NCBI GenBank assembly: GCA_964412585.1
Contig: CAYPPJ010000004.1
Span: forward strand, 9,825-73,824
From: an uncultured Candidatus Saccharibacteria bacterium
GTDB taxonomy: Bacteria; Patescibacteriota; Minisyncoccia; Phycocordibacterales; PALSA-1337
DNA length: 64,000 nucleotides
Direction of reading: 5' to 3'
Made by a program: the position numbers and the translations under genes. Positions 14,644 to 53,454 of the stretch are shown here, piece after piece (the stretch's first letter is position 1; every line of letters starts with the position of its first letter). The notes under the pieces were generated by a model. That model saw only the letters and a program-made list of their open reading frames with translations. It searched no databases and was not told the origin of the DNA.

Positions 14644-17052
14644 TTATTGGGTAACTTTCACCTCCTGAATCTGCTTTATGACCGCATCTACCTGATCTTT
14701 GTATTCAGGATGATCTTTTGCAATCTTGCGGACCAATTCTATTGCTTCCCATTTCCTATTGGCAAGAGTATATACCTCAACAAGTTGCATGCTCAACGGA
14801 ACACTCGTCGGATCGCGCTCGAGAAGTATCTTAAACAGGGCGATTGATTTATCGTATTGCTTGATTACCGCATATGCGTGTGCAGTACGATCATTTTCGA
14901 AGAGATTCATAGTCGATGACGCGACCGCCCGTGCTTCTGTATCACGTTTTGCAACCACGAGACCGAGTATGTATGCCTGCTTTGCATCTTGGAATGTCGG
15001 ATCAGCTTCGTACGCCTCTTTGAGAAGTTTGAGAGCGTCATCAATACGATTTATGCCGAGATAGACATTGGCCAACTGAATAGCAACCGTCTGTTTGTTC
15101 GGCGTAAGCTCATGAGCTTTTTCGAGTATAGGGAGTGCTTCGGCTGCCTGATTGAGGTTGCTCAAGAATGAACCCGCCAGCACGTATCCGCGCGCATCGC
15201 GAGGGGCGTATTCCATCTGCGCCTTTATCTGTTGAAGTGCGAGATCATAAAATGCCTGCTTGGTAGGACCTGGGTACTGTCGCGCGACAATGCCACCTGC
15301 GCATGACAAAATCTGTTCTCTAACCTCTTGGTCAGCTGTTGCTGACAGCGATAACGATTTGGTAAATAATTCCGGATCAGGAAGTGAGTTGCGTGAGCCA
15401 CATGATATCAGGGCATCGATCAGACGTGTATTGGCCTGAATCATGCGGACATTGAGGAAATACATACCACCCACAAAGATGATAATGGCAACCGGTAAGA
15501 CAATGTATTCGACCGCTTCAAGACTGAACGATTTTGATGATGCGCTTTGATCTGCACGCTTCGACGAAGCAGAGCCAGCGAAACCAAGAAGTGCAAAGAA
15601 GAATATGTAGCTTGCCAAGTTATCGAAGACAAAGAAGTTGTGTATACCATATCCTATCACCAACCCCGTAAGTACACTCTTTTGTGATACTGATAATGAC
15701 GATCTCCATACTGCAAGAATGATGAGAACATACAATGCAAGATACACAATAAGACCGACAGCACCTGAGGCAACCAGCCAATCAAGATACACATTGTGTG
15801 CTCGATCGAACCATTGCTCCTGATTCCACATCTTTGGATTGTAATTTGCGTTAAAGATGTAGTTGAAGTTTTCCTGACCCCATCCGAGGATTGGTCGCTC
15901 AGTAAAACCTTTGAGAGCCATGGGCCAAATATAGGCGCGAGCCTGCGTCTTCGTATCGGTAAGAGAAATTGAGGCAATACGATCGAGTGATGGGCTGTTT
16001 TTGACAAACGAAGCATCCTTTACCAAGTAGAATACTCCGCCAAGAATAAAGAACAATGCAATAATGCCGATACTGATCCAGCGACCACTACGTGCTGCTG
16101 GATACGGAACACTGCCTCGATTTTTGATCACATATACAATAAGAGCTATGAAATATATGAGTGCGAGAAGCGCCAACCACCATACCGAAAGTGCAAACAA
16201 TCCGAGGGCTAGCACGAACAACGCATACAGGGCGACGAGGAAAGGAAAACTCAAGATAATCAAAACCTTTTTGTAGTTCACCCCATTTACAAACAAGGCA
16301 TATGACGCACATGTCGCCACCAATCCTATTGCGAGTCCGATCAGCGTACCGCGAGTCTGTGTGAGAAGAATAATAATCGCAAAAATAATAGACAGTATCG
16401 GATATGCCCACTGAAGGAAACTGGCATTGGCAATCCCTTTTGCGCGAGCAACAAAAAACAAATACATTGAAACACCGATATGCATGAGCAAATACACAGC
16501 CAGGTATGCCGCGTTACCGAGTGAAGCATCCAAACGGGTACTACCCTGATGAATCTCTGCCCAACCGAACTGTTGGCACAGAGCATAGATAGTCACAATC
16601 GAAGCAATAACCAACGAGGTATTGAACCAACGGTGCCACAAACGCTTGCCCTCTTCGCCTGCTCCAAAGATACCTGATGCTGACATGAAGAAAGCCCACA
16701 AGTGCGCGATGACCAACCAACCTTCCATACGCTCAAAGTTCGACATGAGACTGCGGACAATGTTCACACCGAGAAGATCAGCCACCAAAGCTACGACCGC
16801 AAACAAGGTGATCCCTATGGTGAGCGCATTGAAACGAGGACGATAACGCGCATCGAGAAACGCAAGAACAGCCCAACAGACCAAGGCTATTTCAACCAAG
16901 ATGCGGAAATAAAAGGCTTTGCCTGTAATAAAGGGGAAAAACATCCCGTCAGGAAAATTGAGCGGCCATACGGGTGTTGGAAATAAGGCAAATATCGGAA
17001 TGAGAAACAGTGCTGACAGGCCAATAGCTCGAAGTATTTTCTGGAGATTCAT
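14644..17052 (-). CDS. Large polytopic membrane protein with C-terminal TPR repeats (O-antigen ligase / Wzy_C-like; candidate glycan polymerase, ligase or O-oligosaccharyltransferase)
   Basis: 802 aa with more than 10 predicted TM helices in the first 500 aa or so, then TPR-like repeats (AYEADPTFQDAKQAYILG..., ALKLLKEAY...). The family assignment is inferred from architecture. Confidence 0.5.
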   Translation of the reverse strand: MNLQKILRAIGLSALFLIPIFALFPTPVWPLNFPDGMFFPFITGKAFYFRILVEIALVCWAVLAFLDARYRPRFNALTIGITLFAVVALVADLLGVNIVRSLMSNFERMEGWLVIAHLWAFFMSASGIFGAGEEGKRLWHRWFNTSLVIASIVTIYALCQQFGWAEIHQGSTRLDASLGNAAYLAVYLLMHIGVSMYLFFVARAKGIANASFLQWAYPILSIIFAIIILLTQTRGTLIGLAIGLVATCASYALFVNGVNYKKVLIILSFPFLVALYALFVLALGLFALSVWWLALLALIYFIALIVYVIKNRGSVPYPAARSGRWISIGIIALFFILGGVFYLVKDASFVKNSPSLDRIASISLTDTKTQARAYIWPMALKGFTERPILGWGQENFNYIFNANYNPKMWNQEQWFDRAHNVYLDWLVASGAVGLIVYLALYVLIILAVWRSSLSVSQKSVLTGLVIGYGIHNFFVFDNLASYIFFFALLGFAGSASSKRADQSASSKSFSLEAVEYIVLPVAIIIFVGGMYFLNVRMIQANTRLIDALISCGSRNSLPDPELFTKSLSLSATADQEVREQILSCAGGIVARQYPGPTKQAFYDLALQQIKAQMEYAPRDARGYVLAGSFLSNLNQAAEALPILEKAHELTPNKQTVAIQLANVYLGINRIDDALKLLKEAYEADPTFQDAKQAYILGLVVAKRDTEARAVASSTMNLFENDRTAHAYAVIKQYDKSIALFKILLERDPTSVPLSMQLVEVYTLANRKWEAIELVRKIAKDHPEYKDQVDAVIKQIQEVKVTQ

Positions 17053-17117
17053 GGTTGTTATAAATTAATACGAGTAGCTTACACTATATTCTACAGAATG
17101 GAAATGTGTGCTCCTAC

Positions 17118-17831
17118 CTACCAGGTGCAGCCCTTCTTACGTAATTCGTTAAGCATGTATTCCGCTTTGATCCAGTCAAATGGCGTATCAATGTCTATTG
17201 AGCGGTCTTCAGAAACGACATGACCGACGATAGTATCACCAAACAGCCGATTGTCTTTCATAATAAGGTCGCGTCTCATAGCATAGACGGCTGAACTACG
17301 GCGATATGCTGGGGCAAGCCCTTGTCTACCTACACCTTCGGGCTCAGGCATGCAATACGGAATCACTTTGTTTCCTTCCAATTTTTTCATCTTGATCGGA
17401 TGCTCATGCGAATCAGCTCTTACGAGACTCACTCCGCTATCGGCACCCGATTCAATGAGAACTTTGAGAGTTTCATCAATATCCTCAGTGAGTCGAAATG
17501 GTGAAGTTGGTTGGAAAATGACGGTGTAATCAAAAACAATTCCCAATTTCTTTTCCATAAAATCGATGGCATGCTGCATAACGGGTAAATGTGGCGTCGT
17601 ATCTCCAGCCAATTCCTTTGGGCGCATAAAGGGCACGTCTGCACCATATTTTTGCGCAACCGCTGCAATCTCAGGATCATCAGTAGAGAGGATTGTATGA
17701 GTTATCAACTTGCTTTTCGAAGCAGCAATAACGCTATAGGCGATGAGCGGCTTATCACCAAGCATTTTTATGTTCTTACCAGGGATACCTTTCGATCCTC
17801 CACGAGCCGTAATTACACATAATATATTCAT
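17118..17831 (-). CDS. CMP-nonulosonate (N-acylneuraminate / pseudaminate / legionaminate) cytidylyltransferase
   Basis: CTP_transf_3 signature ITARGGSKGIPGKNIKMLGDKPLIAYSV; about 237 aa. Confidence 0.8.
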   Translation of the reverse strand: MNILCVITARGGSKGIPGKNIKMLGDKPLIAYSVIAASKSKLITHTILSTDDPEIAAVAQKYGADVPFMRPKELAGDTTPHLPVMQHAIDFMEKKLGIVFDYTVIFQPTSPFRLTEDIDETLKVLIESGADSGVSLVRADSHEHPIKMKKLEGNKVIPYCMPEPEGVGRQGLAPAYRRSSAVYAMRRDLIMKDNRLFGDTIVGHVVSEDRSIDIDTPFDWIKAEYMLNELRKKGCTW

Positions 17832-17870
17832 GAGCTCATTATGTCTGATGTCTGTCCAAAAGCAAACATA

Positions 17871-17899
17871 TTGACAAATTAACTTATTTTAGTTACAAT
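17871..17899 (+). promoter_or_regulatory. Candidate sigma70 promoter (perfect -35 TTGACA, 17-nt spacer, -10 TACAAT) for the downstream plus-strand transporter gene
   Basis: Motif lies in the divergent intergenic region. Confidence 0.4.
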
Positions 17900-17925
17900 T
17901 TATTTAAACTTTGAAAGATACACAT

Positions 17926-18834
17926 ATGATAGGTCAAACATGGATGAAATGGGCAGTCCTTGAAGCGGGCACAAAAACCGCTTCCAAGATGCTCCAAAAA
18001 GTAGTCGGCACCGTCAGTTCGACGTGGTCAGACACATTTCTTGCCGCAGCCGTCATCGGCTTTGTGCAGACGATTTTTGGTGGATTGATGATATGGAGGA
18101 ATCATATTCCCCTGTTTTCTCACCCTACCCAGATAATCGGCTGCTGCCTGTTCGGTCTGCTTGCGGTTGGCTCGACAGCTCTATCGTTCGGTGTGTTTCT
18201 GAATGGCGGTGAGATCGGAGTTAACACCTTCATCATCACTCTGTCCATTGTTCCGGAAGCATTCATCGATGCGATATTCTTCAAACACAAACTTACCGTG
18301 CGCGAACTCGTCGGCATCAGTGTTGCAATCATAGGCGGATACGTGATCCTGGGATCACCATCTCTCGCCGAACTCGCGCATATGCCTCTGTGGGTCTGGA
18401 TATCGTTTGCCACGACATTAACGATAGCGATCGGTCAAGGAGTCACCCGGCAACTCAAAGACGTCAGCCCCTTTGTCAAAAACTTCTGGGGCGGATTGAC
18501 TGGGCTGGTACTCTGCGGGTGTATCGTGATGGTAACTGGCGGATTTGATATGCACGGCCAGCTCCCACTGAAACTGTTGGTAACCTCCGCTGTGATCGGT
18601 CTCATCGTCGTCGGTATGTGGTCATTCAGTTTGATGAGCTACAAGGGCGGCGCCAGCATTGCACTCAAGAAATTGGTGACAAATGGTGTCTACCTAACAG
18701 CGGCCACCTGTGCAGGCGCCCTGTTCTTTGGTGAAAAACTAACCACTGGCACATGGATTGGCATCATGCTGTACTTCGTCGCTTTTGCACTTGTTGATGG
18801 AAGCACGTGGAAGGCGCTCACGCGAAAAAAGTAA
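17926..18834 (+). CDS. Polytopic membrane protein (DMT/EamA-like transporter, tentative)
   Basis: About 300 aa with roughly 10 hydrophobic helices. The ORF track used a TTG start at 17911; the ATG at 17926 is preferred. Confidence 0.45.
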   Translation: MIGQTWMKWAVLEAGTKTASKMLQKVVGTVSSTWSDTFLAAAVIGFVQTIFGGLMIWRNHIPLFSHPTQIIGCCLFGLLAVGSTALSFGVFLNGGEIGVNTFIITLSIVPEAFIDAIFFKHKLTVRELVGISVAIIGGYVILGSPSLAELAHMPLWVWISFATTLTIAIGQGVTRQLKDVSPFVKNFWGGLTGLVLCGCIVMVTGGFDMHGQLPLKLLVTSAVIGLIVVGMWSFSLMSYKGGASIALKKLVTNGVYLTAATCAGALFFGEKLTTGTWIGIMLYFVAFALVDGSTWKALTRKK

Positions 18835-18848
18835 TGTCTCTCGACAGC

Positions 18849-18880
18849 ACGCACCCTTGGAAACGAGGGTGCGTTTTTAT
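18849..18880 (+). terminator. Intrinsic terminator ACGCACCC-loop-GGGTGCGT followed by TTTTTAT
   Basis: 8-bp perfect stem plus a T-run directly after the transporter stop. Confidence 0.6.
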
Positions 18881-18882
18881 TT

Positions 18883-20094
18883 CTATTGTGTATCACCACT
18901 CACTTTCTCGTGATATTTCTTTTGTACGTAGAGCGGAACCGTCGCCACCGTCTCGGCAATATTCTTGGCGGTATCCTTTGCAAAATAAATGTCCGATGAC
19001 TCAAATCGCCCCTGAGCTATCTGCACTGTGATTGCATCCTTTATGGCAGACGTATGATATTGAACATCAAGAACATTTGCGCCACGCAAACGATTTTTTT
19101 GGCGGGAACCGATATTGACGACAGGGACGCCGAGATACGAGCATTCCTTGATGCCCGCTGACGAATTGCCCACCAAGCACTTTGATTTATTGAGAAGTGA
19201 AAGAAACTTCTTTGGTGGCAAATAGCGCATAAAGCGGATCTTATGATCCTTTACTTCATTATTGAAAATACGGAGTTCGTGCGAAATCTCCTCAGCACCA
19301 ATATCAACATTCGGCCAAAACCAAATAGTTGGGACCCCTAGTTCGTAAATCGCCTTGAGGACTTTCTTCGTCTGCTCCGGAAGTTTGGCATATTCGGTCG
19401 TCACTGGATGATAGAGAACGACGATAAATTCTTTGTCCACGTCAAATGGAGCTCCACTGCCTGTGTCATTCAAATCTATCGAATCACCATTTTTACCTAT
19501 TTTGTGGACGACTTCGATATCTGGACTGCCGAAATTGAAAACGTATTTTTTATTTTCACCCATGGCAATAATCCTCTGCTTTGCAGGGTCATTGGTCGCA
19601 AAATGTATGTGTGAAAGCTTGGTGATCGCATGCCGGACGCTCTCATCAAGAGTTCCTGAGACATCGCCACCTTCAATATGCGCAACGCTAATATTCATGT
19701 ATGCGGCAGCGGCAGCGGCAGCAAGAACCTCAAAACGATCGCCACGCACAATGACCACGTCAGGTCGGATCTCACCAAAAAGATTGGCGAACTCGACAAT
19801 GCCAAGACCCGCAGTCTTGGCTTTGACAACAGCACTATCCCCTTCAAGATTAAAAAAAACTTCGTGTATATTCTTGATACCATCTGCCTGAAGTAGTGAC
19901 CGTACTTGAGCAAATTTTGACGCATATTTGGAGAGAAGCGCACTGCCGCCAACAACAACATGGAGCTCCACGTCCTTTCTTTTTTTGAGTTCAGCCAGAA
20001 TAAGCATATTTCTGCTGTAATGAATGAAATTCGTTATGACAAAACAAATTTTTCTTTTTGGTTTTGGAGTAATCTTCTTTTTCGTGGTTTTCAT
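18883..20094 (-). CDS. UDP-N-acetylglucosamine 2-epimerase family, NeuC-like (hydrolysing type)
   Basis: Epimerase_2 fold with HIEGGDVSG in place of the HVEAGLR motif of non-hydrolysing enzymes. The start was trimmed to MKTTKKK to remove overlap with the neighbouring gene. Confidence 0.75.
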   Translation of the reverse strand: MKTTKKKITPKPKRKICFVITNFIHYSRNMLILAELKKRKDVELHVVVGGSALLSKYASKFAQVRSLLQADGIKNIHEVFFNLEGDSAVVKAKTAGLGIVEFANLFGEIRPDVVIVRGDRFEVLAAAAAAAYMNISVAHIEGGDVSGTLDESVRHAITKLSHIHFATNDPAKQRIIAMGENKKYVFNFGSPDIEVVHKIGKNGDSIDLNDTGSGAPFDVDKEFIVVLYHPVTTEYAKLPEQTKKVLKAIYELGVPTIWFWPNVDIGAEEISHELRIFNNEVKDHKIRFMRYLPPKKFLSLLNKSKCLVGNSSAGIKECSYLGVPVVNIGSRQKNRLRGANVLDVQYHTSAIKDAITVQIAQGRFESSDIYFAKDTAKNIAETVATVPLYVQKKYHEKVSGDTQ

Positions 20095-20104
20095 ATATGT
20101 CTGA

Positions 20105-20950
20105 TTAGCTGTTTTTGCCAAGTCTACCAGTATATTTTGCACGCGTCAGCTTTTCTTCAGGCAACAAATCGAGACTGCCGGTACCCAGTGCCGTCACATA
20201 TCGATCTCTCCACTCCACCAACTCTTTGAATACATGAGGCTCATCGGCAATACTGTGTGTCGTGATCGGCTTGAGACCTTTGCCGACGGTGTGTCCGATC
20301 TGGGGCGTATCGCGATCAAGCGTAAAATGCTTCTCAATATACTTTACACCCATGCCAAGAGAGAGCATGGCCGCAGATGCGCCCAGCACATGGTCAGAAT
20401 ATCCCACATGAGGTGTCTGCTCTTTGAGCCATGCAAGTTTACCGAGATTCGCCTTTTCCAACGGACACGGGTACACGGACACGCAATGCATGATCGTAAA
20501 TTCGCCTTTTTTAAGTATGTTGAGCGCTTTCTTTATTTCATCCTCAGTCGTCATGCCGGTCGAAGCAATAACCTCATCAAAATTATCGCGAAGTTGTTTC
20601 AAAAATGTGAAATGTTTGAGATCTGTACTCGCGACCTTGATTGATGTGAGTCCAAGCTTCTTGAGAAATGGGATGCGCGCAGCATCATAACACGTGGTCA
20701 TGAATTTGACGCCAGCTTTTTCACATTCTTTTTTGAGAATTATATGAGCTTCGTCTGAAAGTTCGAGAGAAGCGTAACGCTTTTTATCAGGATCTGAATC
20801 ATCGACATTTTTGCTCTGCCATGACTGAAACTTCACAATATCAACACCTGCATCCTTTGCAGCCCAAATCATCTTTTTCGCCAGCTCAATATCACCGTTA
20901 TGTGACGAGGCGATTTCAGCGATGATTTTCGGGGTATATCGTGCACTCAT
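20105..20950 (-). CDS. NeuB-family nonulosonate (sialic-acid-like) synthase, short form without the C-terminal SAF domain
   Basis: IIAEIASSHNGDIELAKKMIWAAKDAGVDIVKFQ TIM-barrel signature; 281 aa. Confidence 0.7.
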   Translation of the reverse strand: MSARYTPKIIAEIASSHNGDIELAKKMIWAAKDAGVDIVKFQSWQSKNVDDSDPDKKRYASLELSDEAHIILKKECEKAGVKFMTTCYDAARIPFLKKLGLTSIKVASTDLKHFTFLKQLRDNFDEVIASTGMTTEDEIKKALNILKKGEFTIMHCVSVYPCPLEKANLGKLAWLKEQTPHVGYSDHVLGASAAMLSLGMGVKYIEKHFTLDRDTPQIGHTVGKGLKPITTHSIADEPHVFKELVEWRDRYVTALGTGSLDLLPEEKLTRAKYTGRLGKNS

Positions 20951-21001: not shown

Positions 21002-21877
21002 CTATTTCTTTCCCTTCCCTTCTGCGAACAAATACACTCCCTTATCAACGGGCCGGTCATCTACAGAATGGAATGTTACCTGCCCGAAGTAAGGTGTGAG
21101 CAACCACTCCAAACTTTCCTTGCTAAAATAATTCTTGTGGTCAGGAGCATTCCAACGAGAACGTTTTGCGTCAGTATAAAACTGATCAGGATATCGGTTT
21201 GGCACACTCATGAAAAAAGTACCCGCCGGCGAAAGGAGCCGGAGCATATTCTTCATGGCATTGTGAAAATCAGAAATCGTTAGGTGTTCGAGCACTTCAA
21301 AAGCACAGACGCTGTCGTAGTATCCATCAGTTGTTTTCAGGTCTTCGATAGCAGATACCTCAAAACGAACTTTAGCGGCATCGCTGGTAGAAATTTTTCC
21401 CTGAGTACGCAAGGTGTTTAGCAATCCATCTGCGGTAGCAATAGCATCTGGCCGGAGATCAATACCAGCGACTTCACTAACCTGTGGAAGTTTGGCAATC
21501 TCAATAGTGACAGTTCCTGAAGAACAGCCCGTTTCCAATACTTTCGCACCAAAAGGAAGTGCCAAGGTGGTCTTGAGGCGCGCCGTATCATCGAGCCTCC
21601 AGGTTGCCAGCATCGGGTGTGTTGAGTCATTTTCTGGAGAATAGATATACTCGATCCTGTCGCGGAATTGTTGTGCACGCTTGATTTGCTCTTCACGCGT
21701 CCATTCATATTCATCGACAACTACAGGAAATATGTTCGTGGCAGTGTCTCGAGTCACGCCATTTTTTGACGCAAGTACAGACACTTCATTACCAGTACGA
21801 TCAACACCGACAACGATATCGGTATTGGTTGTTTCAATAATCCCCTGATAGTCCATGTGTTTGATTTCCAATTTCAT
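21002..21877 (-). CDS. Class I SAM-dependent methyltransferase
   Basis: Motif I VLETGCSSG and the post-I/II motifs; 291 aa. Confidence 0.7.
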   Translation of the reverse strand: MKLEIKHMDYQGIIETTNTDIVVGVDRTGNEVSVLASKNGVTRDTATNIFPVVVDEYEWTREEQIKRAQQFRDRIEYIYSPENDSTHPMLATWRLDDTARLKTTLALPFGAKVLETGCSSGTVTIEIAKLPQVSEVAGIDLRPDAIATADGLLNTLRTQGKISTSDAAKVRFEVSAIEDLKTTDGYYDSVCAFEVLEHLTISDFHNAMKNMLRLLSPAGTFFMSVPNRYPDQFYTDAKRSRWNAPDHKNYFSKESLEWLLTPYFGQVTFHSVDDRPVDKGVYLFAEGKGKK

Positions 21878-22417
21878 ATGACTAATACTATACTATACCC
21901 CATGAAAGAGTGCACTAAAATCAATCTCGGAGGAGGTAGGAACAAACAAGCAGGGTTCACCACTATCGATATCATTGCCTATCCAGAGGTTGATATTGTC
22001 GCTGATGTGACTAAAGGCATTCCCCTGCCCGACAATTCCGTCGAAGAAGTCCTCGCTCTAAGCATTATTGAGCATCTTGATGATACAGTCTTCATTATGG
22101 AAGAAATATACCGAGTCTGCAAAAATGAAGCCAAAATCATCATCACTGTACCGTATGTAAAATCAACCGCCGCATTCAAAGATCCGACGCACAAAAAATT
22201 CTTTACCGAGCGCACCTTTGAGTATTTTGACAAAAGTCTTCTCAATGCGGGCCGCCTCCCTGACTACCATATGAAATGTGATTTCCAAGTGAAAAACATT
22301 TCCTATAAATATTACACACCATGGTTCCGCCACGTCCCAGGTATCAATCGTATTTTTGCCCGCTTCTTTTGGGATATTATAAAAACACTCACGTTTGAGC
22401 TTCGGGTACGCAAATAG
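21878..22417 (+). CDS. SAM-dependent methyltransferase (Methyltransf_11/23-like)
   Basis: INLGGG... and LSIIEHLDD motifs. The start was moved to the internal Met to avoid overlapping the divergent neighbour. Confidence 0.6.
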   Translation: MTNTILYPMKECTKINLGGGRNKQAGFTTIDIIAYPEVDIVADVTKGIPLPDNSVEEVLALSIIEHLDDTVFIMEEIYRVCKNEAKIIITVPYVKSTAAFKDPTHKKFFTERTFEYFDKSLLNAGRLPDYHMKCDFQVKNISYKYYTPWFRHVPGINRIFARFFWDIIKTLTFELRVRK

Positions 22418-26165: not shown

Positions 26166-26184
26166 GATACAATAGCGCACACCT

Positions 26185-27988: not shown

Positions 27989-28027
27989 GTCGGCACGTAG
28001 AAGAGCGTACTCGTGAGAAGAAAGTCA

Positions 28028-28060: not shown

Positions 28061-28061
28061 T

Positions 28062-28095: not shown

Positions 28096-28111
28096 GTGAA
28101 AAAAGATCGAA

Positions 28112-46070: not shown

Positions 46071-46931
46071 TTATTTTTTCCGTGCGGTCACTGCCGTGCC
46101 ATACACACCTTCCAAGAGATCAAGATCTTTACCTGATGCGAGGAGCAATTCAACATTCTTGTTTCGAATCGCTTCAAGAACTGCCAGGGCTGAAGGATCC
46201 GGGACAGATGCGCGGAACATTTCTATAAACGCCTCGAAATCTTTGATGAAACAATGACCTCCTGCCCCACGGCCTTTTTTGTCGACAGGTTTGAGATATC
46301 GATGCGACATATATGGATCAGCCTTGAATGCGTCACTCAAGACTTCCCACTTCATCTTGAAAGCAGCGGAAATATCGTACAGCATATTAGACTGAACGAC
46401 CTGAACATATCCATTGATATTATGCGCGTATTTTATCAACTCGGCTTCATCAGAAGAACACGTGAGATTATACGGTGCGGCCGGCAATACGCTCAAGATA
46501 CGTGTGGCAGCTTTTTTGTATACTGGAGTCATCTGCGGTAATCCAATAATATTTCTTGGCGGATTCGCCGCATCAAACGCGGCCGTCGCCTCACTCAAAA
46601 ACTCGGGAGAATGAACAATCAGGCGATCGGGAAAAGCCTTTTGCAATAAGCGTGTCCTCCCTACTGGCAATGTTGATTTGATGACCGCAATCTTTTTTTT
46701 ACCAACAAGCGGTAGAACCGCACGTAAAATACTGTCGTCATATCCTTGTGGAGTGGTTGGTGTCGGTACTGCAATAAAAACCAGGTCACACGCTGCAATA
46801 CGTGCCTTATTCTTATTGTATGGAGCCTCAAGGCCGTATCTGACCACCGCATGACCGCGATTTTCAAAATCATCGGCATAATGCTTGCCAATCCAACCCT
46901 GTCCAATAAATCCAATGAGTGGTTTCTTCAT
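46071..46931 (-). CDS. Nucleotide-sugar dehydrogenase family protein (UDP-glucose/GDP-mannose dehydrogenase-like), unusually short
   Basis: N-terminal GFIGQGWIG dinucleotide fold and a catalytic-Cys-like motif GAGGHCFIKD (compare GGSCFPKD). 286 aa is shorter than canonical members. Confidence 0.5.
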   Translation of the reverse strand: MKKPLIGFIGQGWIGKHYADDFENRGHAVVRYGLEAPYNKNKARIAACDLVFIAVPTPTTPQGYDDSILRAVLPLVGKKKIAVIKSTLPVGRTRLLQKAFPDRLIVHSPEFLSEATAAFDAANPPRNIIGLPQMTPVYKKAATRILSVLPAAPYNLTCSSDEAELIKYAHNINGYVQVVQSNMLYDISAAFKMKWEVLSDAFKADPYMSHRYLKPVDKKGRGAGGHCFIKDFEAFIEMFRASVPDPSALAVLEAIRNKNVELLLASGKDLDLLEGVYGTAVTARKK

Positions 46932-47064: not shown

Positions 47065-48189
47065 CTAGTGAAATGCGTCAAATAACGAACCCCCTGAACT
47101 GACGAGGAACAGCAGGATATTCACGATGATAGGAATGGAGATCAAAGACGCACGAGCCACACGTTGGTAGGTACTCGATTTTGAGGAAATATGATCCCGA
47201 ATCTGTGTATATGCATATAACGCCAATGGTATAACCCATATAAACTGGATAAATTGGATGCGCGAAATAAATACAGGCCACAAAAGTACCGGCAGTGTCG
47301 CGATGAATGCGGCAATAACTGCATCAAGGTTTTTCATACCGCGACGCGATCGTATCATGCGAACAATTGCATACAGCACCCCGAGCCAATAGAGTCCGAA
47401 TGTTGAGCCTTCAACAATAAGTGATGTAAACAAAGAATGTGTCGGGGCTCCGCCATACTGTGCGTTGTTTGCGCTGAACCAATCAAGGAATGAGGGTGCA
47501 TGACCGGCGATAGTGGCAAGTAAAACACCATAGAGAACGAGTGCGGGTAGTCCGACAGAAAGTATGTTGGTAATCATCGCCTTGGTTCCCTTTTTTCGAG
47601 AACGCCATACAACAAGCAGACACAACGCGATCAACCCCAGTACGCCAGTCTCCTTGGCTGTAGCTCCAAGGAAACCGATGATAGAGGCCAGGCACAACAA
47701 AAAACGAGAATCTTTTCGAAAGGCAACAAGACCGACGAGGATAGTGACCGCCGACAGGCACCACCCTGAAATATCAGTACCCAGTGCCAAGCCATATTTT
47801 AGAAGCGGATATGCCGTCGCGATCCACGCCGCACCGACAACGGAGTCTGAACTCGAATATTCTAATTCCCTAAAGATACGATATACCGCACCAACAAGAA
47901 CAATGTAGAAAATAACGTTGAGCGCAAAAATCAATCCATAGGGATGAGACGTGTGCAGTATGGTGCCGCCGACAATCGCGTAAAACGGCTTGAACAGACG
48001 CTGCATGATGGTGACATCACCTACAAACGGAGCACCTTGAGTAAATGAGGTAATTTGTGCCGCATATATCGGTGCATCAATACGCGTGTCAAAAAATCCA
48101 TTGACTGAAAAGACCAGCGCCATTACACCAAGACATACCGCGCATAGTATGAACCAGTGTTTATTATTTTTTAAAAAACTGATGTCCAT
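47065..48189 (-). CDS. Polytopic membrane protein (candidate GT-C-type glycosyltransferase or glycan polymerase)
   Basis: 374 aa with about 10 TM helices. Function is inferred only from its context. Confidence 0.45.
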   Translation of the reverse strand: MDISFLKNNKHWFILCAVCLGVMALVFSVNGFFDTRIDAPIYAAQITSFTQGAPFVGDVTIMQRLFKPFYAIVGGTILHTSHPYGLIFALNVIFYIVLVGAVYRIFRELEYSSSDSVVGAAWIATAYPLLKYGLALGTDISGWCLSAVTILVGLVAFRKDSRFLLCLASIIGFLGATAKETGVLGLIALCLLVVWRSRKKGTKAMITNILSVGLPALVLYGVLLATIAGHAPSFLDWFSANNAQYGGAPTHSLFTSLIVEGSTFGLYWLGVLYAIVRMIRSRRGMKNLDAVIAAFIATLPVLLWPVFISRIQFIQFIWVIPLALYAYTQIRDHISSKSSTYQRVARASLISIPIIVNILLFLVSSGGSLFDAFH

Positions 48190-48198: not shown

Positions 48199-49677
48199 TT
48201 ATTTTTTGCTGGTATGCAATGTGCCTGACTCAAAATAGCTCTTCTCTGTGCCGATAGACTCAATGTCATACTGCTTCCCATCGATAATACTTCGGGCCGC
48301 CAATATGCCCATTTCGAGCGAATGGTCTTGGTTGTTGTATCGGAATCTTCCTGGACGTCCAATGTAGTAGAAATCTGTGAATGTATCGAGGTATTTTTTT
48401 ATGACCGCAAGATATTCTTGATAATGGGTATCATACACTGGATATACGTCTTCCTGCACAATGCGATAACACCTGCGAACTTCATCCTTTGAAATAAACT
48501 GATGGTCGGCCAAATACGCAATCGTTCGATCGAAAAGCTCTTGTTCCGACATGTTCCAGACCTCATCCCCTTTGGTACAAAAGAACTCAATAAAGAGAGA
48601 GGTTTTGCCCTCTGGAGACATCTGCGCGCTAAAGTTCCTCATTTCGCTCATACGGCCGATCGGATTGGTAAATTCAGGAAAATAAATCCACTGATCATCA
48701 GTCACCGTCTTTCTGTTGAGTGTCATGAAGACGTAGACTTGACTGCGATACGTGAGCAGTTTCTGCGCCTCGATAATCGCCTTCGGAGGACGTGGTTCAA
48801 GCAAGTTGATGAACGACTTGAGCGGAACTGACTCGACTAGATTGTTACATACAAACTCAATATCTCCTTCAGGACTACTGCACACTATCGAAGAGACTCG
48901 GCCATTGGTGTGAATAATCTTTTTTGGTTCAGTGGAACACATGATGCGATATCCTTGAGATTCCAGCTTGGCGCGAATAGTTTCGTAGATAAGCCCCGTG
49001 CCTGATTCTGGGTAATAAAATGTATCGACAAGCGTTTTCGGTTTCTTTGAATTTTTGATGCGCGTAAGTGATAGCAACATATCCTTGATGAGCGCCGTGA
49101 CATTGAGCCCCTTGATACGCTGGCCAGCCCAATCTACGTGTATATCCTTTGCTGAAATACCCCAGATTTTTTCGGTGTAGTTGATCATGTTGAACTGGCC
49201 AAGTGACTTGCCGAAATTGGCATAGACATAATCAGCAAAATTCTCTATCGGATGTTTGAAAAGACCGTAGCGAATCTTCGCCATAACATAATCAATTCCC
49301 ATACGGATAGCGCGAAAAAATCCGACGTTCTTGAGCGCCTGAAGCGCGTTGACTGGGTAGTCATAAAATTTTCCTTCAATGTATTGACGCGTCTGGCGCT
49401 TTACCTGGATCCATCGCTCCTGCAAAAGCTCCTGGATGAAATCATACAAATACTGATTTTTTGAGAAGAAACGATGAGGACCATTATCAGTTCGAAATAC
49501 CAATCCATCTTCGTGAAATTCATACGTCTTTGAAAGACCGCCAACCATCGCTTGTTTTTCAATAACAATAAACTCTTTCCCTTTCTTTGAGAGTTCCATG
49601 GCCGTGGCCAAGCCCGCTGGTCCTGCGCCAATAATCAATGTGTCTATGATGATTTTTTTCATAACGTAGAGTTTCAC
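48199..49677 (-). CDS. FAD/NAD(P)-binding oxidoreductase, UDP-galactopyranose-mutase-like
   Basis: The IGAGPAGLATAMEL dinucleotide motif and a GPHRFF...YDYPVN segment resembling Glf. At 492 aa it is longer than bacterial Glf. Confidence 0.5.
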   Translation of the reverse strand: MKLYVMKKIIIDTLIIGAGPAGLATAMELSKKGKEFIVIEKQAMVGGLSKTYEFHEDGLVFRTDNGPHRFFSKNQYLYDFIQELLQERWIQVKRQTRQYIEGKFYDYPVNALQALKNVGFFRAIRMGIDYVMAKIRYGLFKHPIENFADYVYANFGKSLGQFNMINYTEKIWGISAKDIHVDWAGQRIKGLNVTALIKDMLLSLTRIKNSKKPKTLVDTFYYPESGTGLIYETIRAKLESQGYRIMCSTEPKKIIHTNGRVSSIVCSSPEGDIEFVCNNLVESVPLKSFINLLEPRPPKAIIEAQKLLTYRSQVYVFMTLNRKTVTDDQWIYFPEFTNPIGRMSEMRNFSAQMSPEGKTSLFIEFFCTKGDEVWNMSEQELFDRTIAYLADHQFISKDEVRRCYRIVQEDVYPVYDTHYQEYLAVIKKYLDTFTDFYYIGRPGRFRYNNQDHSLEMGILAARSIIDGKQYDIESIGTEKSYFESGTLHTSKK

Positions 49678-49707: not shown

Positions 49708-50139
49708 TCAGGAGGTTTTCCGGTTAAAAATCACCCGGTATACAAAATAGCTTTCAAGAGCAATAAGCAGGCTGGCGATTATCTGACCGATAATGTAATG
49801 CAATCCGAGTCCGTCCACACATACGTACATCAAGAGAGTGTTCAGACCGAGGTTGACCAGTGCCAAGAGCCCAAACCAACTTGCCTGCACATGAATACCC
49901 TCTCTTTCCTTATCCTGAAACGTCCAATATTTCTGCATGATAAAACTTACGCAGACAGCAATAACAAACGCGACAATTGATGAAAACAAATACCAGACAT
50001 GCGCCACATGAGTAAGAATGAACAACACTCCCACATTGACGGCGGCACCAGTTCCTCCAGAAATAAAAAAACGCACCCACTTCATCAGCTGAGGGTATCG
50101 TTGTTCAGTAGTTATATACCAATCGATGATGCGCTGTTT
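49708..50139 (-). CDS. GtrA-family membrane protein
   Basis: FISGGTGAAVNVGVLFIL... with 4 TM helices. Start trimmed to MKQRIIDW. Confidence 0.7.
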   Translation of the reverse strand, partial: KQRIIDWYITTEQRYPQLMKWVRFFISGGTGAAVNVGVLFILTHVAHVWYLFSSIVAFVIAVCVSFIMQKYWTFQDKEREGIHVQASWFGLLALVNLGLNTLLMYVCVDGLGLHYIIGQIIASLLIALESYFVYRVIFNRKTS

Positions 50140-50155
50140 CATAGGGTAGACGAGA

Positions 50156-51208
50156 TTATGATGCGAGTGCTTCAATAATTCCACGAGCAACTTCAGACGC
50201 TTCCCATCCGACAATCTGTGCACCAACTTCTCTGGCCACTCCAACATCCGTCGAAACAATCTTGCACCCTGCTGCACGCGCCTCGACAAGCGTCATGCCA
50301 TATCCTTCAAATAAAGAAGTGACGAGAAATGCGTCACAGGTTTTATAATAGGAGAACAGTGTTGTCTGATTGGCCCATTGCTCAAATATAACGTTCGTAG
50401 TCACACCAAACGCTCCGACCTGGTTTTTGAGCGAAGATTCTTGACCACCACTACCAACGATAATCAGGCCAGCTTTTGGCATGCCATTCATCACCTGTTT
50501 CCAAGCATCAATGGCAAGCCCAACATTTTTTTCCTTTTCCAGACGAGCGGCAACCAAGACAATCTTTTCAAACTGCGGATATTTCTTGTGCAGGTCTGCA
50601 CCTTCAATAATCGGTGCATTTTTGATGTGTGTCGTATCGACCGCAACCGGACGTACCTCAATCTTTTCCGCGTCAATCTGTACTGTGTTGACCAAATAAT
50701 CCTTTATCTTGTTGGACACCACGCGAATATGATCGGCCCGAGGCAAGTATGAGAGCGCAAGAGTCTTACGGATCTTCCTCATGAGACTCGTAACGTAATA
50801 GGCGCTGCCAATGTCTTCATGAACCTGAATTTCCAACGGAATAGTGAACTTCTTTTTCAGTGATATACCAGCCATGGCGGTGAGTGATGAATCTTGGCAA
50901 GTAATCTCGGTAATGCCTCTTTTTTCAATCAAAAAAGACCCCAACGAAATAGCGTCAAATGGGTACATGAACTTGGCTCGCGAATCTGTCGAGTATGCCC
51001 AACAGTTTGGTGCAATGACAGTTTCTAATTTGGCATTTGAAATTTGTGACTTGTTTGAATATTGAAGTTTGGAATTTGCTTTTTTGAATACTATGATATG
51101 CACTTCATCCCACTGTTTCGCATATTCAACCTGGCGCGCCCGGACCGCGCTCCCTTCTTCGAAGATCTTCCTATCTGTCCCAATCATCAATAACCTTCGT
51201 GGCTGCAT
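50156..51208 (-). CDS. Glycosyltransferase family 4
   Basis: C-terminal GT1 motif SLFEGYGMTLVEARAAG. Confidence 0.7.
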   Translation of the reverse strand: MQPRRLLMIGTDRKIFEEGSAVRARQVEYAKQWDEVHIIVFKKANSKLQYSNKSQISNAKLETVIAPNCWAYSTDSRAKFMYPFDAISLGSFLIEKRGITEITCQDSSLTAMAGISLKKKFTIPLEIQVHEDIGSAYYVTSLMRKIRKTLALSYLPRADHIRVVSNKIKDYLVNTVQIDAEKIEVRPVAVDTTHIKNAPIIEGADLHKKYPQFEKIVLVAARLEKEKNVGLAIDAWKQVMNGMPKAGLIIVGSGGQESSLKNQVGAFGVTTNVIFEQWANQTTLFSYYKTCDAFLVTSLFEGYGMTLVEARAAGCKIVSTDVGVAREVGAQIVGWEASEVARGIIEALAS

Positions 51209-51209: not shown

Positions 51210-52229
51210 CTATTTTTCCAGGTGAATCTTCATAATCTCACCAGCGATTTGTTCCCACGAATGAGCGAACGAAAGTGCTTGAACTTTGCGGGCCTGCTCG
51301 GCACGATGGTTCGGATCTGCAAGCCATACAATCTTCTCGACAATGTCTTTTTTACTTTTCGGATCAACAAATACAGCAGCATCCTTGATGAGATGAGTAA
51401 TACCATTTTCTTTGGTGACAATAAATGGGGTGCCAACTCGAACGGCATCGAGAATCATGTTCGGACTGATGTCTCCCAACGATGCCAAAATAACCGCATA
51501 CGATCGGTGTATCTTCTCAACAAAGCTGTCATACACCGCCTTACCACAGTCAAGCTCAATATCGGGCAACCCCAGTCGTTTGACCTCCATTCGCGCTTCC
51601 TCAAAAGCTTCTTTGACCAACTCTGTGTTTTTCCATTTGAGCGGACGCGCTCCAGCAACAAATGTGCGATTTTCAGGTTCAATAAATGCTTCACGCTTTC
51701 CGCAATAGTTTTCCACCAGACGACTTTTTTTCGTATCAAGTTTGTATGCGGGCTCAAAGATGCCCTTCTGCCAGTTAGTACTAAAAATAAGTCGGTGTGC
51801 ATTTCGCAGAGACGCTCCACCAAGTTTGAAAACTAACTTTTCTTTGCGGGATAATTTGTCCATCGATACGGCGTAAAAGTCCTTGAGGAACACCAAGTCC
51901 CCCGTACGTTCGACATATGACTCCCACAAAAAATCACCACCAGTCCTTAATGAGTATTTTTTGTGCATCAGCTTGCAGGCATACATGGCTGGCACAGCGG
52001 CTGACCAAGTATCGAGTACCAAGATAAGATCGGCATTCCAGCCTTTGCGTATAATCTTAAGAAAATAAAAAATGTGGCGGACCAATGGAGGAAAGGCGCG
52101 TTCCCAGCGGTAGGCAGCAACTTTGACGTCATGACCTTGCTTTTTCCAGGTCTCGTAGAGATTGCGGGCGTATTGGGCGGGACCACCGATATCGGGCGGA
52201 TATATACCTGAAGCAATGAGGATTTTCAT
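51210..52229 (-). CDS. Glycosyltransferase family 4
   Basis: GT-B pattern. Start trimmed to MKILIASGIYPPDIGG. Confidence 0.7.
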   Translation of the reverse strand: MKILIASGIYPPDIGGPAQYARNLYETWKKQGHDVKVAAYRWERAFPPLVRHIFYFLKIIRKGWNADLILVLDTWSAAVPAMYACKLMHKKYSLRTGGDFLWESYVERTGDLVFLKDFYAVSMDKLSRKEKLVFKLGGASLRNAHRLIFSTNWQKGIFEPAYKLDTKKSRLVENYCGKREAFIEPENRTFVAGARPLKWKNTELVKEAFEEARMEVKRLGLPDIELDCGKAVYDSFVEKIHRSYAVILASLGDISPNMILDAVRVGTPFIVTKENGITHLIKDAAVFVDPKSKKDIVEKIVWLADPNHRAEQARKVQALSFAHSWEQIAGEIMKIHLEK

Positions 52230-52254
52230 AGGATTAAGTCTAGCACATCCCGCT

Positions 52255-53454
52255 TTAGACCACGTCCTTGAAAAGAGCCAGCATCTGGGATGAAATATTT
52301 TTCCAATCATAACGCGCCACAACCATTTCCTGTGCATTTTTGACGATATAATCGCGTGACTCCTTATCCTTGATTAATTTTTCAACCTTTTGCGCGACCG
52401 ATTGTGGGTTGTTCACTTCACAAAAAAGTCCCGTTTGGCCATCTACAAGAAAATCAGGAATACCACCAACGGGTGTGGCTATTACTGGAATACCTGCTGC
52501 CATTGCTTCCAGAAATGAATTGCCCAACCCTTCGGATAATGAAGGACGCACAAAGATGTCAGCAACATGAAGATATGGAGGCAATTCTTTTTGAGGTATA
52601 TAGCCGATGAATGTCACGCGATCTTCAATCTTCAATTGTGCGACCAGCGCCTTGAGCTCGTTCTCCAGGTGGCCACTTCCGATACTGACAAACTTCACGT
52701 TCTTTGGAAGAAGGGTCAAAGACTTCAGGATATCAGCCACGGCATTTTTCAGTACCAGTCGGCCGGTGGTTATCAACAAAATATCTCCCTCTTGTTTATT
52801 GAGTGAACGTTTCAACTCAGATGCCTCTGCGACTGAAATTTCTTCGGCAAAAAATCGAACATCAACACCATTTGGCGTGACCACAATCGGACACGTTGCA
52901 CCCAAGCTTTTGGCCCAATCAGCAAGATACGTCGAAATAGTTTGAATATAGTCAGAAACCTTAAACAATTTTTTGAAAAATGGATAAGTAATCCCAACAC
53001 GCTTCCGAATATGAGCGAACGGATCCCCTTCCTGCAGTGTCAAAATAAGTTTCACCTCGCGATGCATGAGTTTGAAAAATAACGCCGGGCCACTCGCATA
53101 ATTTGCCATGATACACCACGTCGCATGATACTTTCTTGTGGCATGAAGCTGCAATGCTTTGAGTAAAGCAAGCGGCATAAAAAGATATTTGAGTGCATAC
53201 AACAGTGGCGAACGCGTACTGCCCTTCCAACGCGGACCAACTCGATATACGTTGATATTGCCAACGCGCTCGAATTTCAAGGCCTCGGTACGCATCGTAA
53301 TCATGTCAAAATCCACTTCTTCAGGAGAAATGCGCCTGGTGATTTCTTCAACCGCAACCTCGGCACCACCGACAAAACGGTGGTAATACATGAGTGAAAA
53401 GATGAGGATGCGACGCGGCTTTTCCGGAGTGGTCATACCTTCATACTTCCACAT
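52255..53454 (-). CDS. Glycosyltransferase family 4
   Basis: SLSEGLGNSFLEAMAAGIPVIAT GT1 signature. Confidence 0.75.
   Translation of the reverse strand: MWKYEGMTTPEKPRRILIFSLMYYHRFVGGAEVAVEEITRRISPEEVDFDMITMRTEALKFERVGNINVYRVGPRWKGSTRSPLLYALKYLFMPLALLKALQLHATRKYHATWCIMANYASGPALFFKLMHREVKLILTLQEGDPFAHIRKRVGITYPFFKKLFKVSDYIQTISTYLADWAKSLGATCPIVVTPNGVDVRFFAEEISVAEASELKRSLNKQEGDILLITTGRLVLKNAVADILKSLTLLPKNVKFVSIGSGHLENELKALVAQLKIEDRVTFIGYIPQKELPPYLHVADIFVRPSLSEGLGNSFLEAMAAGIPVIATPVGGIPDFLVDGQTGLFCEVNNPQSVAQKVEKLIKDKESRDYIVKNAQEMVVARYDWKNISSQMLALFKDVV

Follow-up and report, generated by a model that had tools for sequence, protein, structure and literature searches.

The DNA analysed here is a 64-kb stretch of contig CAYPPJ010000004.1 (the window, from whose first letter all coordinates are counted), and its subject is a surface-glycan gene island at 14644-53454, an almost unbroken run of 38 consecutive genes of which at least 33 have a glycan-related family assignment. 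We scanned all open reading frames (ORFs) of at least 100 amino acids (aa) across the window against Pfam and NCBIfam, and both these scans and the related loci agree with a first-pass annotation that had placed here a block of surface-glycan genes, some of nonulosonate (NulO) type, in a genome of the candidate phyla radiation (CPR). The island is bordered on the left by MurB (13066-14094), SecA, GatB and Obg, and on the right by a VirD4/TraD-like ATPase (53457-55430), a DUF4015 protein, an RsmI-like protein, an ATP-grasp protein and MraY. Within it, module 1 (17118-20950) and module 2 (26930-36351) each hold a NeuB-family synthase and a cytidylyltransferase. The annotation had proposed one nonulosonate pathway; the gene type was recognised correctly, and a second, apparently phosphatase-coupled route of the kind known for ketodeoxynonulosonate (Kdn) and 3-deoxy-D-manno-octulosonate (Kdo), with enzymes that had been missed, has to be added.

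Module 1 comprises the cytidylyltransferase CT1 (17118-17831, minus strand), an EamA/DMT-family transporter lying between CT1 and NeuC (17911-18834, plus strand; PF00892, 32.5 bits; about 7 transmembrane (TM) segments, all TM counts being estimates), the hydrolysing UDP-GlcNAc (or NDP-diNAc-hexose) 2-epimerase NeuC (18883-20142, minus) and the synthase NeuB1 (20105-20950, minus; 281 aa), and by its gene families it appears to be the classical free-sugar arrangement. NeuC scores 351.7 against a cutoff of 235.9 with TIGR03568 and 58 bits with the wecB model. The two synthases, NeuB1 and the NeuB2 of module 2, reach 180 and 203 bits with PF03102 (gathering score 22.1), are 29% identical to each other, both keep the two metal-binding His, Glu25, Lys53, Lys129 and Glu234, and have the same best match in the PDB, the Leptospira NeuB 6ncs, which is without a SAF domain. 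The two cytidylyltransferases are 33% identical, and both are CTP_transf_3 proteins (PF02348; CT1 82 bits, CT2 78 bits). The PseF model TIGR03584 gives 164 bits for CT1 and 135 for CT2 against a cutoff of 205.7, while KdsB models give at most 43 and 50; among solved structures CT1 is closest to CMP-N-acetylneuraminate (CMP-Neu5Ac) synthetases (104-108 bits, against 25 for KdsB), and CT2 likewise (122 against 37 bits). These scores mark both as predicted NeuA-type CMP-ulosonate synthetases, and the NeuC, the two NeuB-family proteins and the two CMP-sugar cytidylyltransferases of the first-pass annotation are all borne out. The EamA gene has a 40% identical homologue inside the NulO module of a Vogelbacteria metagenome-assembled genome (MAG), at 14219-15136 of the locus that we number L013; eukaryotic CMP-sialic acid transporters belong to the same EamA/DMT superfamily.

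Module 2 begins with NeuB2 (26930-27988, plus strand; start probably 26993, giving 331 rather than 352 aa) and two variable genes, one for a 347-aa protein discussed below (28112-29155, minus) and one for a hypothetical 171-aa protein (29376-29891, minus) with no family match and no homologue in any fetched locus. It continues with CT2 (30060-30824, plus), a class-III (omega) aminotransferase (30814-32088, minus; PF00202, 224.6 bits), an aldo-keto reductase (AKR; 32151-33095, plus; PF00248, 133 bits), an S-adenosylmethionine (SAM) methyltransferase (33077-34036, plus; Methyltransf_23, 85.5 bits), a KdsC/YrbI-family phosphatase of the haloacid dehalogenase (HAD) superfamily and of the ulosonate-omega-phosphate phosphatase type (34113-34655, plus), a short-chain dehydrogenase/reductase (SDR; 34712-35665, minus; start probably 35539, giving 275 aa as called in locus L001; adh_short_C2, 149 bits) and a xylose-isomerase-like TIM barrel of sugar-phosphate epimerase/isomerase type (35536-36351, minus; PF01261, 75 bits), which is weakly similar to the L-ribulose-5-P 3-epimerase UlaE. 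With TIGR01670 the HAD protein obtains a borderline 109.3 against 106.95, in keeping with the KdsC-type phosphatase first proposed.

The evidence for a second route comes chiefly from a comparison of 80 loci around relatives of NeuB2, which span Acidobacteriota, Omnitrophota, Chloroflexota, Nitrospirota, Bacteroidota, Proteobacteria and CPR; close loci were retrieved by scanning one genome per species. With 42% identity of the synthase to NeuB2 as the dividing line, a KdsC-type HAD gene is present in 33 of the 50 loci at or above it and in none of the 27 below (Fisher p = 2.8e-9, a value that overstates the independence of the loci, since many of them come from related Acidobacteriaceae), and in 26 loci it lies no more than 61 bp from the synthase. 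Among the 50 more similar loci, 18 have the TIM barrel gene and 24 the SDR gene; among the 27 others the corresponding counts are 0 and 3. All HAD-adjacent synthases and NeuB2 form a single clade in a neighbour-joining tree (built without bootstrap), and NeuB1 falls outside this phosphatase-linked clade, among NeuC-linked sequences. Neisseria meningitidis NeuB, a partial sequence recovered from an alignment and the sole characterised reference in both the tree and the active-site alignment, groups with NeuC-linked synthases of two other loci.

Relative to this reference, the NeuB2 clade keeps Glu25, Lys53, Gln55, Lys129, Ser132, Tyr186, Glu234, His236 and Asp247, has Trp in place of Phe112 in all members and mostly Ser in place of Asn184. 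At the site of the catalytic Glu134, 77 of the 119 clade members counted have Ser and 42 have Cys, NeuB2 itself, with Cys179, being one of the latter; NeuB1 has Asp for Glu134 and Thr for Asp247. The coupling of the clade to HAD, TIM barrel and SDR genes, together with Ser or Cys at the Glu134 site, indicates a route through a phosphorylated intermediate, and these comparisons point to a logic that mirrors the synthesis of Kdo, Kdn and animal Neu5Ac, in which phosphoenolpyruvate (PEP) is joined to a sugar phosphate and the product is dephosphorylated and activated with CMP.

A NeuB-TIM link is also seen in a Parcubacteria MAG (L091), where a 637-aa protein encoded at 805-2718 on the plus strand fuses NeuB, SAF and AP_endonuc_2 (xylose-isomerase-like TIM) domains and has as neighbours a GT-B protein of the 28112-29155 type, PIG-L, Epimerase_2, Bac_transf and a Wzy_C protein with tetratricopeptide repeats (TPR). 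Leptospira interrogans has a synthase of the same architecture, with an endonuclease-like domain, which has been read as part of a phosphorylated route (PMC3438082). None of the top 120 homologues of the window's TIM barrel is fused to NeuB, all of them being stand-alone, and the fused TIM domain is not BLAST-similar to that barrel, so the fusion backs the link at the level of the Pfam family only.

The remaining three enzymes of module 2 appear to be a CPR addition. The class-III aminotransferase directly adjoins CT2 homologues in the CPR loci L011-L014, L030 and L031, the AKR and the methyltransferase lie close to them in L011-L014 (the AKR at 56-88% identity; the methyltransferase at 91% in L011 and 60% in L013), and all three are absent from the non-CPR modules among the compared loci. 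The aminotransferase resembles ArgD, OAT and GabT and passes no equivalog cutoff; the usual targets of such enzymes are terminal aldehyde or amine groups. It is reasonable to suppose that the ulosonate or its precursor may be aminated late in the route. Other versions of the module have components of their own: in Omnitrophota and Chloroflexia the SDR is separated from the TIM barrel or the cytidylyltransferase by a GFO/IDH/MocA oxidoreductase (L019, 12890-13954; L057, 11718-12758), and in Wildermuthbacteria a SIS-domain isomerase lies beside the synthase (L030, 10869-11441).

The candidate TRANSFERASES are three proteins of the GT-B glycosyltransferase (GT) fold, encoded on the minus strand at 22455-23810, 24846-26258 and 28112-29155, which had been listed as three unassigned GT-B-like proteins and are now seen to be one TagB/TagF-like protein and two that are GT-B by profile and structure. 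The 22455 protein (PF04464, 27.5 bits) matches over residues 136-254 the BFO_1060 family model NF046086, at 41.5 bits and below the cutoff of 200; this family comprises the Tannerella forsythia pseudaminic/legionaminic acid (Pse/Leg) transferase, shown as such by knock-outs (PMC5420450). Homologues of the 22455 protein stand beside NeuB, NeuC and NeuA in four loci (L057, L029, L018 and L023), Chloroflexia included. The 24846 protein has no Pfam match of its own and belongs to the TagF/polysialyltransferase superfamily; its family has 119 representatives, whose alignments begin only at residue 35-43, so that its start is probably near 26156. Among 72 members of this family the matches are to Glyphos_transf (20), Epimerase_2 (10), A-2_8-polyST (4), GT52 (1) and Capsule_synth (1), and a K-x-H-P motif is nearly invariant.

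The 28112 protein belongs to a family of 46 unnamed proteins whose few taxon-labelled members are Parcubacteria. Its AlphaFold model, from an alignment of 32 sequences, has the GT-B fold (pLDDT 94.4), His199 is invariant and Pro200 nearly so in the family, and hhalign relates the family to that of the 24846 protein with 98.1% probability and with the HP motifs aligned. A structural neighbour in the fold comparison is PDB 5zlr, a 'GDP/UDP-N,N'-diacetylbacillosamine 2-epimerase (hydrolyzing)', and the protein could be either a glycosyltransferase or an epimerase/hydrolase. Genes of this type lie beside or near NeuB in L012, L091 and L092. The 28112 family shows no conservation of the D/E-D/E-G motif of sialyltransferases, and the 22455 and 24846 proteins do not have it; the 22455 protein also lacks the HP motif. 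All three proteins are candidate CMP-ulosonate transferases.

As for assembly, the first gene of the island encodes an 802-aa protein (14644-17052, minus) with about 13 TM segments, a Wzy_C domain (the O-antigen ligase/polymerase/O-oligosaccharyltransferase family; PF04932, 62.8 against 31.7) and C-terminal TPR families, much as the first-pass description of a TPR-bearing, O-antigen ligase-like polytopic protein had it. A PDB sequence search with this protein returned matches to TPR proteins only. NeuB, a 28112-type GT-B protein and a Wzy_C+TPR protein recur together in L091 and L092, the last being 31-37% identical to the window's in L092, and this recurrence suggests that the protein has a role on the ulosonate glycan, which it may handle as ligase, polymerase or O-oligosaccharyltransferase. 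The Wzx-like, Wzy_C+TPR and WecB proteins, the GT2, GT4 and GT9 enzymes, and the GtrA, GT-C-like and FAD proteins described below fit lipid-linked assembly with decoration outside the membrane.

Because of the relatives of NeuB2, the synteny with two CPR loci and the similarity of the flanking housekeeping genes, we regard the attribution to CPR as sound, the sequence pointing to a Paceibacteria-type genome. NeuB2 is 100% identical over 331 aa to P0001, a protein encoded on contigs as long as 85.7 kb, and the named taxa among its 120 best listed relatives (at least 49% identity) are Patescibacteria (Kaiserbacteria, Taylorbacteria and Yanofskybacteria). A Ca. Paceibacterota MAG (L011) shares 19 syntenic genes with the window at 74-93% amino-acid identity, a Ca. 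Taylorbacteria MAG (L012) shares further ones at about 80-87%, and on the L092 contig SecA and MurB are 63% and 54% identical to the window's. The same MurB/SecA-adjacent site of L092 holds a smaller NulO island with a methyltransferase, NeuB, NeuC, a cytidylyltransferase, a 2-hydroxyacid dehydrogenase, Wzy_C+TPR, an unknown protein and a 28112-type protein; the island of the window is an enlarged version of this recurrent one.

Close relatives differ within module 2. L011 has other forms of the aminotransferase, SDR and TIM barrel, with no more than 35-40% identity to those of the window although their neighbours reach 84-93%, and it lacks the HAD, 28112 and 29376 genes; L012 has the HAD, SDR, TIM barrel and 28112 genes of the window type, yet the aminotransferase of the L011 type. 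The GC fraction is 0.51 at 26-30 kb against about 0.45 elsewhere in the window. This pattern looks like the cassette-like turnover typical of surface-antigen loci and, between such close relatives, fits selection by hosts or phages.

Based on these observations, we think it probable, with a good deal of room for doubt, that the locus is a chromosomal surface-glycan island with two separate routes to CMP-activated 3-deoxy-2-ulosonic (sialic-acid-family) sugars and with the machinery to build, methylate, flip and attach an oligo- or polysaccharide that bears them. This view is built on gene content, protein families, synteny, clade-specific co-occurrence and the fold of one protein, from which all the substrates, all the products and the acceptor named below are predicted. 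In route 1, as family membership and gene linkage suggest, NeuC would free a 2-acetamido-mannose-type sugar from its UDP precursor, NeuB1 would condense it with PEP and CT1 would form the CMP-sugar. In route 2, for which comparative genomics is the guide, the TIM barrel and the SDR would probably shape a sugar phosphate, NeuB2 would join it with PEP into an ulosonate omega-phosphate, the KdsC-type HAD would take off the phosphate and CT2 would activate the product; in CPR the class-III aminotransferase, AKR and methyltransferase that travel with CT2 would probably add an amino and/or a methyl modification. Transfer of the CMP-ulosonates may fall to the 22455, 24846 and 28112 proteins, and the rest of the chain would be built and decorated by the GT2, GT4 and GT9 enzymes, by WecB as a source of UDP-ManNAc and by the six methyltransferases. 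The Wzx-like flippase and the Wzy_C+TPR protein would then export the glycan and polymerise it or ligate it onto a surface acceptor, with a further sugar probably added outside the membrane by GtrA, the GT-C-like protein and the FAD protein.

A more specific version is one that we put forward only tentatively: that module 2 is a widespread, uncharacterised pathway in which the SAF-less NeuB clade, HAD, TIM barrel and SDR would make, by way of an omega-phosphorylated intermediate, a new ulosonic acid, extended in CPR to a structurally novel amino/methyl-modified nonulosonate that 28112-type proteins would install and the Wzy_C+TPR protein would attach to pili or an S-layer mediating attachment to a host.

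Several observations weigh against the two-route island, in addition to the missing bootstrap and the relatedness of many of the loci compared. The first-pass annotation had described only one NeuB as SAF-less; PF08666 in fact finds no match in either, the NeuB domain reaches nearly to the C terminus and leaves no room for one, and Arg314 is lacking as well. The loss of the catalytic Glu134 throughout the NeuB2 clade is a further difficulty. Both synthases stay under the equivalog cutoffs of NeuB_NnaB (TIGR03569; NeuB1 193 and NeuB2 214 bits against 399.65) and PseI (TIGR03586; 138 and 174 against 340.25), and both cytidylyltransferases are likewise under every NCBIfam equivalog cutoff, so that sequence alone does not name the sugar, neither the chain length nor the stereochemistry of either product, and the earlier label 'sialic-acid-like' is unproven. 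The HAD protein is under the equivalog cutoffs of KdsC (113.7 against 208) and KDN-9-P phosphatase (89.4 against 180) and stands nearer to KdsC than to the latter, with 101 bits to a solved KdsC and 69 bits to 3e81, which we take to be the Bacteroides thetaiotaomicron KDN-9-P phosphatase BT1713. The Pfam and NCBIfam scans found in the window no sugar kinase that could make a phosphorylated hexosamine and no initiating phosphoglycosyl transferase, for which tblastn with a CPR Bac_transf protein was also empty; the Glycos_transf_4 gene at 61354-62484, considered for this role, was rejected as it is MraY. The Wzx match is below its cutoff (25 against 28.2). Since the island genes of the 64-kb window lie on both strands with several strand switches, the island consists of several transcription units and may hold more than one functional system.

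That the ulosonates feed instead a teichulosonic- or teichoic-acid-type wall polymer, which TagF-like polymerases would make on a monoderm envelope, and neither a Wzx/Wzy oligosaccharide nor a protein glycan, is unlikely in our estimate and still a serious alternative. Three TagB/TagF-superfamily GT-B proteins adjoin the NeuB genes, CPR bacteria are generally regarded as monoderm, and the window lacks a WbaP/PglC-type initiating transferase. Streptomyces, moreover, makes a Kdn-containing teichulosonic acid from the cluster SCO4873-SCO4882 (PMC13011467) and has SAF-less NeuBs (PMC8208679). Set against such a polymer are the Pfam and NCBIfam scans of the window, which found no LCP (LytR-CpsA-Psr) ligase, no TagO/TagA/TagGH-type gene and no ABC exporter, the presence of a Wzx-like flippase and of Wzy_C, the recurrence of Wzy_C+TPR with NeuB in L091 and L092, and the fact that TagB-like enzymes can be single-addition NulO transferases, as in T. 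forsythia (PMC5420450). We consider it improbable that the island makes a single sugar, with NeuC yielding ManNAc, an unlinked kinase ManNAc-6-P, and NeuB2 and the HAD protein Neu5Ac (or another single NulO) by an animal- or Leptospira-like phosphorylated route, and with NeuB1 and CT1 as redundant or strain-specific duplicates. L. interrogans with its NeuB-endonuclease-like fusion does contain Neu5Ac, and a phospho-route has been proposed for it (PMC3438082); both window NeuBs match the SAF-less Leptospira NeuB best, and NeuC is the sole precursor-forming enzyme above an equivalog cutoff. Yet the synthases and the cytidylyltransferases are far apart in sequence (29% and 33% identity), the synthases hold separate positions in the tree, and each module has its own cytidylyltransferase; the relative L092 has NeuB, NeuC and a CT1 without module 2, most HAD-coupled loci in other phyla are without NeuC, and the window has no kinase.

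A 5,7-diamino NulO, with NeuC acting as LegG, NeuB1 as LegI or PseI and CT1 as LegF or PseF, is very unlikely. PseF is the best NCBIfam model of both cytidylyltransferases (164 and 135 bits), the LegG role is known for NeuC-type enzymes (PDB 5zlr), and two SDR-type epimerase/dehydratases give weak LegB matches; but PseB reaches 38 against 408 and LegB 149 and 71 against 475, the PseF and PseI cutoffs are missed, and the window holds no PseG, no PseH, no N-acetyltransferase and no DegT/DnrJ/EryC1 aminotransferase, its only aminotransferase being class III. We reject Pse and Leg for this lack of pathway-specific enzymes in the window. A lipopolysaccharide (LPS)-core or Kdo cluster, which the first-pass annotation had named as the competing explanation, is scarcely credible. 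The HAD protein does score best against a solved KdsC (101 bits) and a GT9 'heptosyltransferase-family' gene is present, but the synthases belong to the NeuB family, NeuA gives the cytidylyltransferases scores 3-4 times those of KdsB, all heptosyltransferase equivalogs stay under cutoff, and the window is without any KdsA (DAHP_synth_1), KdsD, WaaA or lipid A gene; the NeuA-type cytidylyltransferases and the lack of KdsA essentially refute it.

The proposed island with two routes can also be set beside characterised systems. Module 1 is predicted to unite in one cluster the three activities of the classical NeuC-NeuB-NeuA systems of N. meningitidis and E. coli K1, with NeuC above its cutoff, and differs from them in NeuB1, which is without SAF and the substrate-contacting Arg314, has Asp for Glu134 and Thr for Asp247 and reaches about half of the equivalog cutoff. 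Like the NulO cluster of L. interrogans (PMC3438082), in which one synthase is linked to an AP-endonuclease-2/xylose-isomerase-like domain and has been read as a phosphorylated route, the island has a synthase associated with such a domain, and its NeuBs have the Leptospira protein 6ncs as their best solved match. Unlike Leptospira, the window lacks the complete Leg set (LegB/C/H), has its TIM barrel as a separate gene, a bona fide KdsC-type HAD and a class III rather than DegT aminotransferase, and belongs to a CPR host.

The Kdn pathway of B. thetaiotaomicron uses a KDN-9-P synthase and a KDN-9-P phosphatase. Together with the vertebrate NANS/NANP route, the phosphorylated Neu5Ac route of animals (PMC8208679), it shares with the predicted route 2 a NeuB-family synthase working on a sugar 6-phosphate, a KdsC/YrbI HAD and CMP activation; in contrast to both, the HAD of the window is below the KDN-9-P phosphatase equivalog (89 against 180), the NeuB2 clade is without Glu134, and neither pathway has anything that corresponds to the TIM barrel, SDR, aminotransferase, AKR and methyltransferase. 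The S-layer O-glycan of T. forsythia with its terminal Pse/Leg (PMC5420450) offers the precedent of a TagB/GT-B-type protein paired with a NulO pathway, whereas the 22455 protein is far under the family cutoff (41.5 against 200) and without the HP and D/E-D/E-G motifs, and the T. forsythia sugars are Pse/Leg derivatives. Streptomyces teichulosonic acid (SCO4873-SCO4882; PMC13011467) is similar in its probably monoderm setting, its SAF-less type of NeuB (PMC8208679) and its being an ulosonate surface polymer. The window, for its part, has Wzx/Wzy_C-type assembly genes and many methyltransferases. The Streptomyces cluster presumably includes TagF-like enzymes.

Nothing in the island is categorically new, as NulO clusters, phospho-route synthases, SAF-less 'environmental' NeuBs (PMC8208679) and TagB-like NulO transferases have already been described. 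In the searchable literature we found no description of NulO-type pathways in CPR/Patescibacteria, nor any work linking nonulosonic acids with these bacteria, and likewise none of the NeuB2 clade signature and coupling (KdsC-type HAD, TIM barrel, SDR, and Ser or Cys at the Glu134 site), of the CPR addition of class-III aminotransferase, AKR and methyltransferase, or of the CPR-only GT-B family of the 28112 type. The system had been called poorly described for this lineage, which agrees with that search; the trait itself is not exceptional there, because NeuB2-type clusters number at least 120 at no less than 49% identity in Patescibacteria among the matches listed. CPR/Patescibacteria are thought to live attached to host cells, and almost nothing is known of the chemistry of their surface. 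In a genome of roughly 1 Mb, an island of about 39 kb would take up a few percent, and so large a share suggests that the methylated, ulosonate-bearing glycan is a major surface determinant. The NeuB clade with Ser or Cys at the Glu134 site and its coupling to KdsC-type phosphatase, TIM barrel and SDR in at least six phyla are a testable lead to an undescribed ulosonic-acid pathway. They also offer an explanation for the SAF-less 'environmental' NeuBs that a large phylogenetic survey noted and could not explain (PMC8208679).

Between the two modules lie a SAM methyltransferase (21002-21877, minus; Methyltransf_23/31/25/11; 83% identical in L011), a short, 186-aa SAM methyltransferase (21857-22417, plus; Methyltransf_11, 29.5 bits; 93% identical in L011) that is a paralogue of the one at 44397-44993, a 343-aa protein with a very weak GT2-like signal (23807-24838, minus; PF00535, E = 0.01; 74% identical in L011) and a further SAM methyltransferase (26185-26886, plus; Methyltransf_25/11, 81 bits; 87% identical in L011 and L012). 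To the right of module 2 follow the probable MOP/Wzx-type flippase (36348-37763, minus; PF01943; about 9 TM; 86% identical in L011), a GT2 glycosyltransferase (37869-38750, plus; PF00535, 96 bits), a NUDIX hydrolase (38798-39295, minus; PF00293, 29.5 bits), the non-hydrolysing UDP-GlcNAc 2-epimerase WecB (39389-40483, minus; TIGR00236, 282 against 210), an NAD-dependent sugar-nucleotide epimerase/dehydratase (40473-41426, minus; PF01370, 126 bits) that passes no equivalog cutoff (LegB 71 against 475), a weakly matched SAM methyltransferase (41428-42036, minus; Methyltransf_25, 25 bits; Methyltransf_11, 23 bits), a GT9 (heptosyltransferase-family) enzyme (42079-43239, minus; PF01075, 64 bits; below cutoff with all heptosyltransferase equivalogs), a GT4 enzyme (43232-44395, minus; Glyco_trans_1_4, 83 bits), a SAM methyltransferase (44397-44993, minus; Methyltransf_11, 58 bits) and another GT4 enzyme (45016-46068, minus; Glyco_trans_1_4, 50 bits). 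The GT9 gene, of the LPS heptosyltransferase family, is present in a lineage generally regarded as having no LPS.

The last part of the island, all on the minus strand, consists of a truncated NDP-sugar dehydrogenase-like ORF (46071-46931), a polytopic GT-C-like protein (47065-48189; PMT_2, weak; PF13231, 24 against 26.1; about 8 TM), an FAD-dependent oxidoreductase of the PRK07208 family with a fold like that of UDP-galactopyranose mutase (UGM) (48199-49677; NF005548, 407.8 against 389; UGM equivalog 53 against 304), a GtrA-family membrane protein (49708-50289; PF04138, 87 bits) and three GT4 genes (50156-51208, PF00534, 89 bits; 51210-52337, a weak, GT4-like match with PF00534 and PF13439 at about 25 bits, just under cutoff; 52255-53454, PF00534, 145 bits). 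The truncated ORF covers profile positions 71-296 of 413, without the first 70 or so positions (the Rossmann nucleotide-binding start) and without the C-terminal domain, and represents a decayed gene or else an unusual short variant.

The gene list of the first-pass annotation was essentially correct for the island, five unlisted genes apart (class-III aminotransferase, AKR, TIM barrel, NUDIX and EamA). WecB, the SDR, GtrA and the six SAM methyltransferases are recovered by their family matches, and the eight glycosyltransferases are one GT2, one GT9, five GT4 and the very weak GT2-like protein. Some entries need adjusting: of the two NAD epimerases only that at 40473-41426 lies inside the island, the second (9174-10133) being outside it; the Wzx flippase has about 9 TM segments and a PF01943 match that is weak; the UGM-like flavoprotein is an FAD protein whose UGM match is weak; and the nucleotide-sugar-dehydrogenase-like protein does match its family, as a truncated ORF.

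Outside the island, the GalE-like NAD epimerase at 9174-10133 (minus) carries a C-terminal SEC-C zinc-binding motif (PF02810, 24 bits) and lies directly downstream of SecA (10145-12799), which bears a SEC-C motif of its own. Four NUDIX hydrolase genes are found in the 64 kb (4418-4858, plus; 6965-7462, minus; 8578-9018, minus; 38798-39295, minus), the last of them inside the island, and the whole window gave no tRNA gene and no Rfam family at the gathering threshold. At the right border, the VirD4/TraD-like coupling ATPase (53457-55430, minus; TrwB_AAD_bind, TraG-D_C) is on the same strand as the last GT4 gene and 2 nt away from it, and given this gap the two may be co-transcribed. Farther right, an ATP-grasp protein, a 258-aa protein with a weak NlpC/P60 signal, MraY (61354-62484; 191.5 bits against a cutoff of 192.05) and an arginyltransferase/Fem-like protein, all on the plus strand at 59191-63146, look like a peptidoglycan stem/bridge gene set outside the glycan island.

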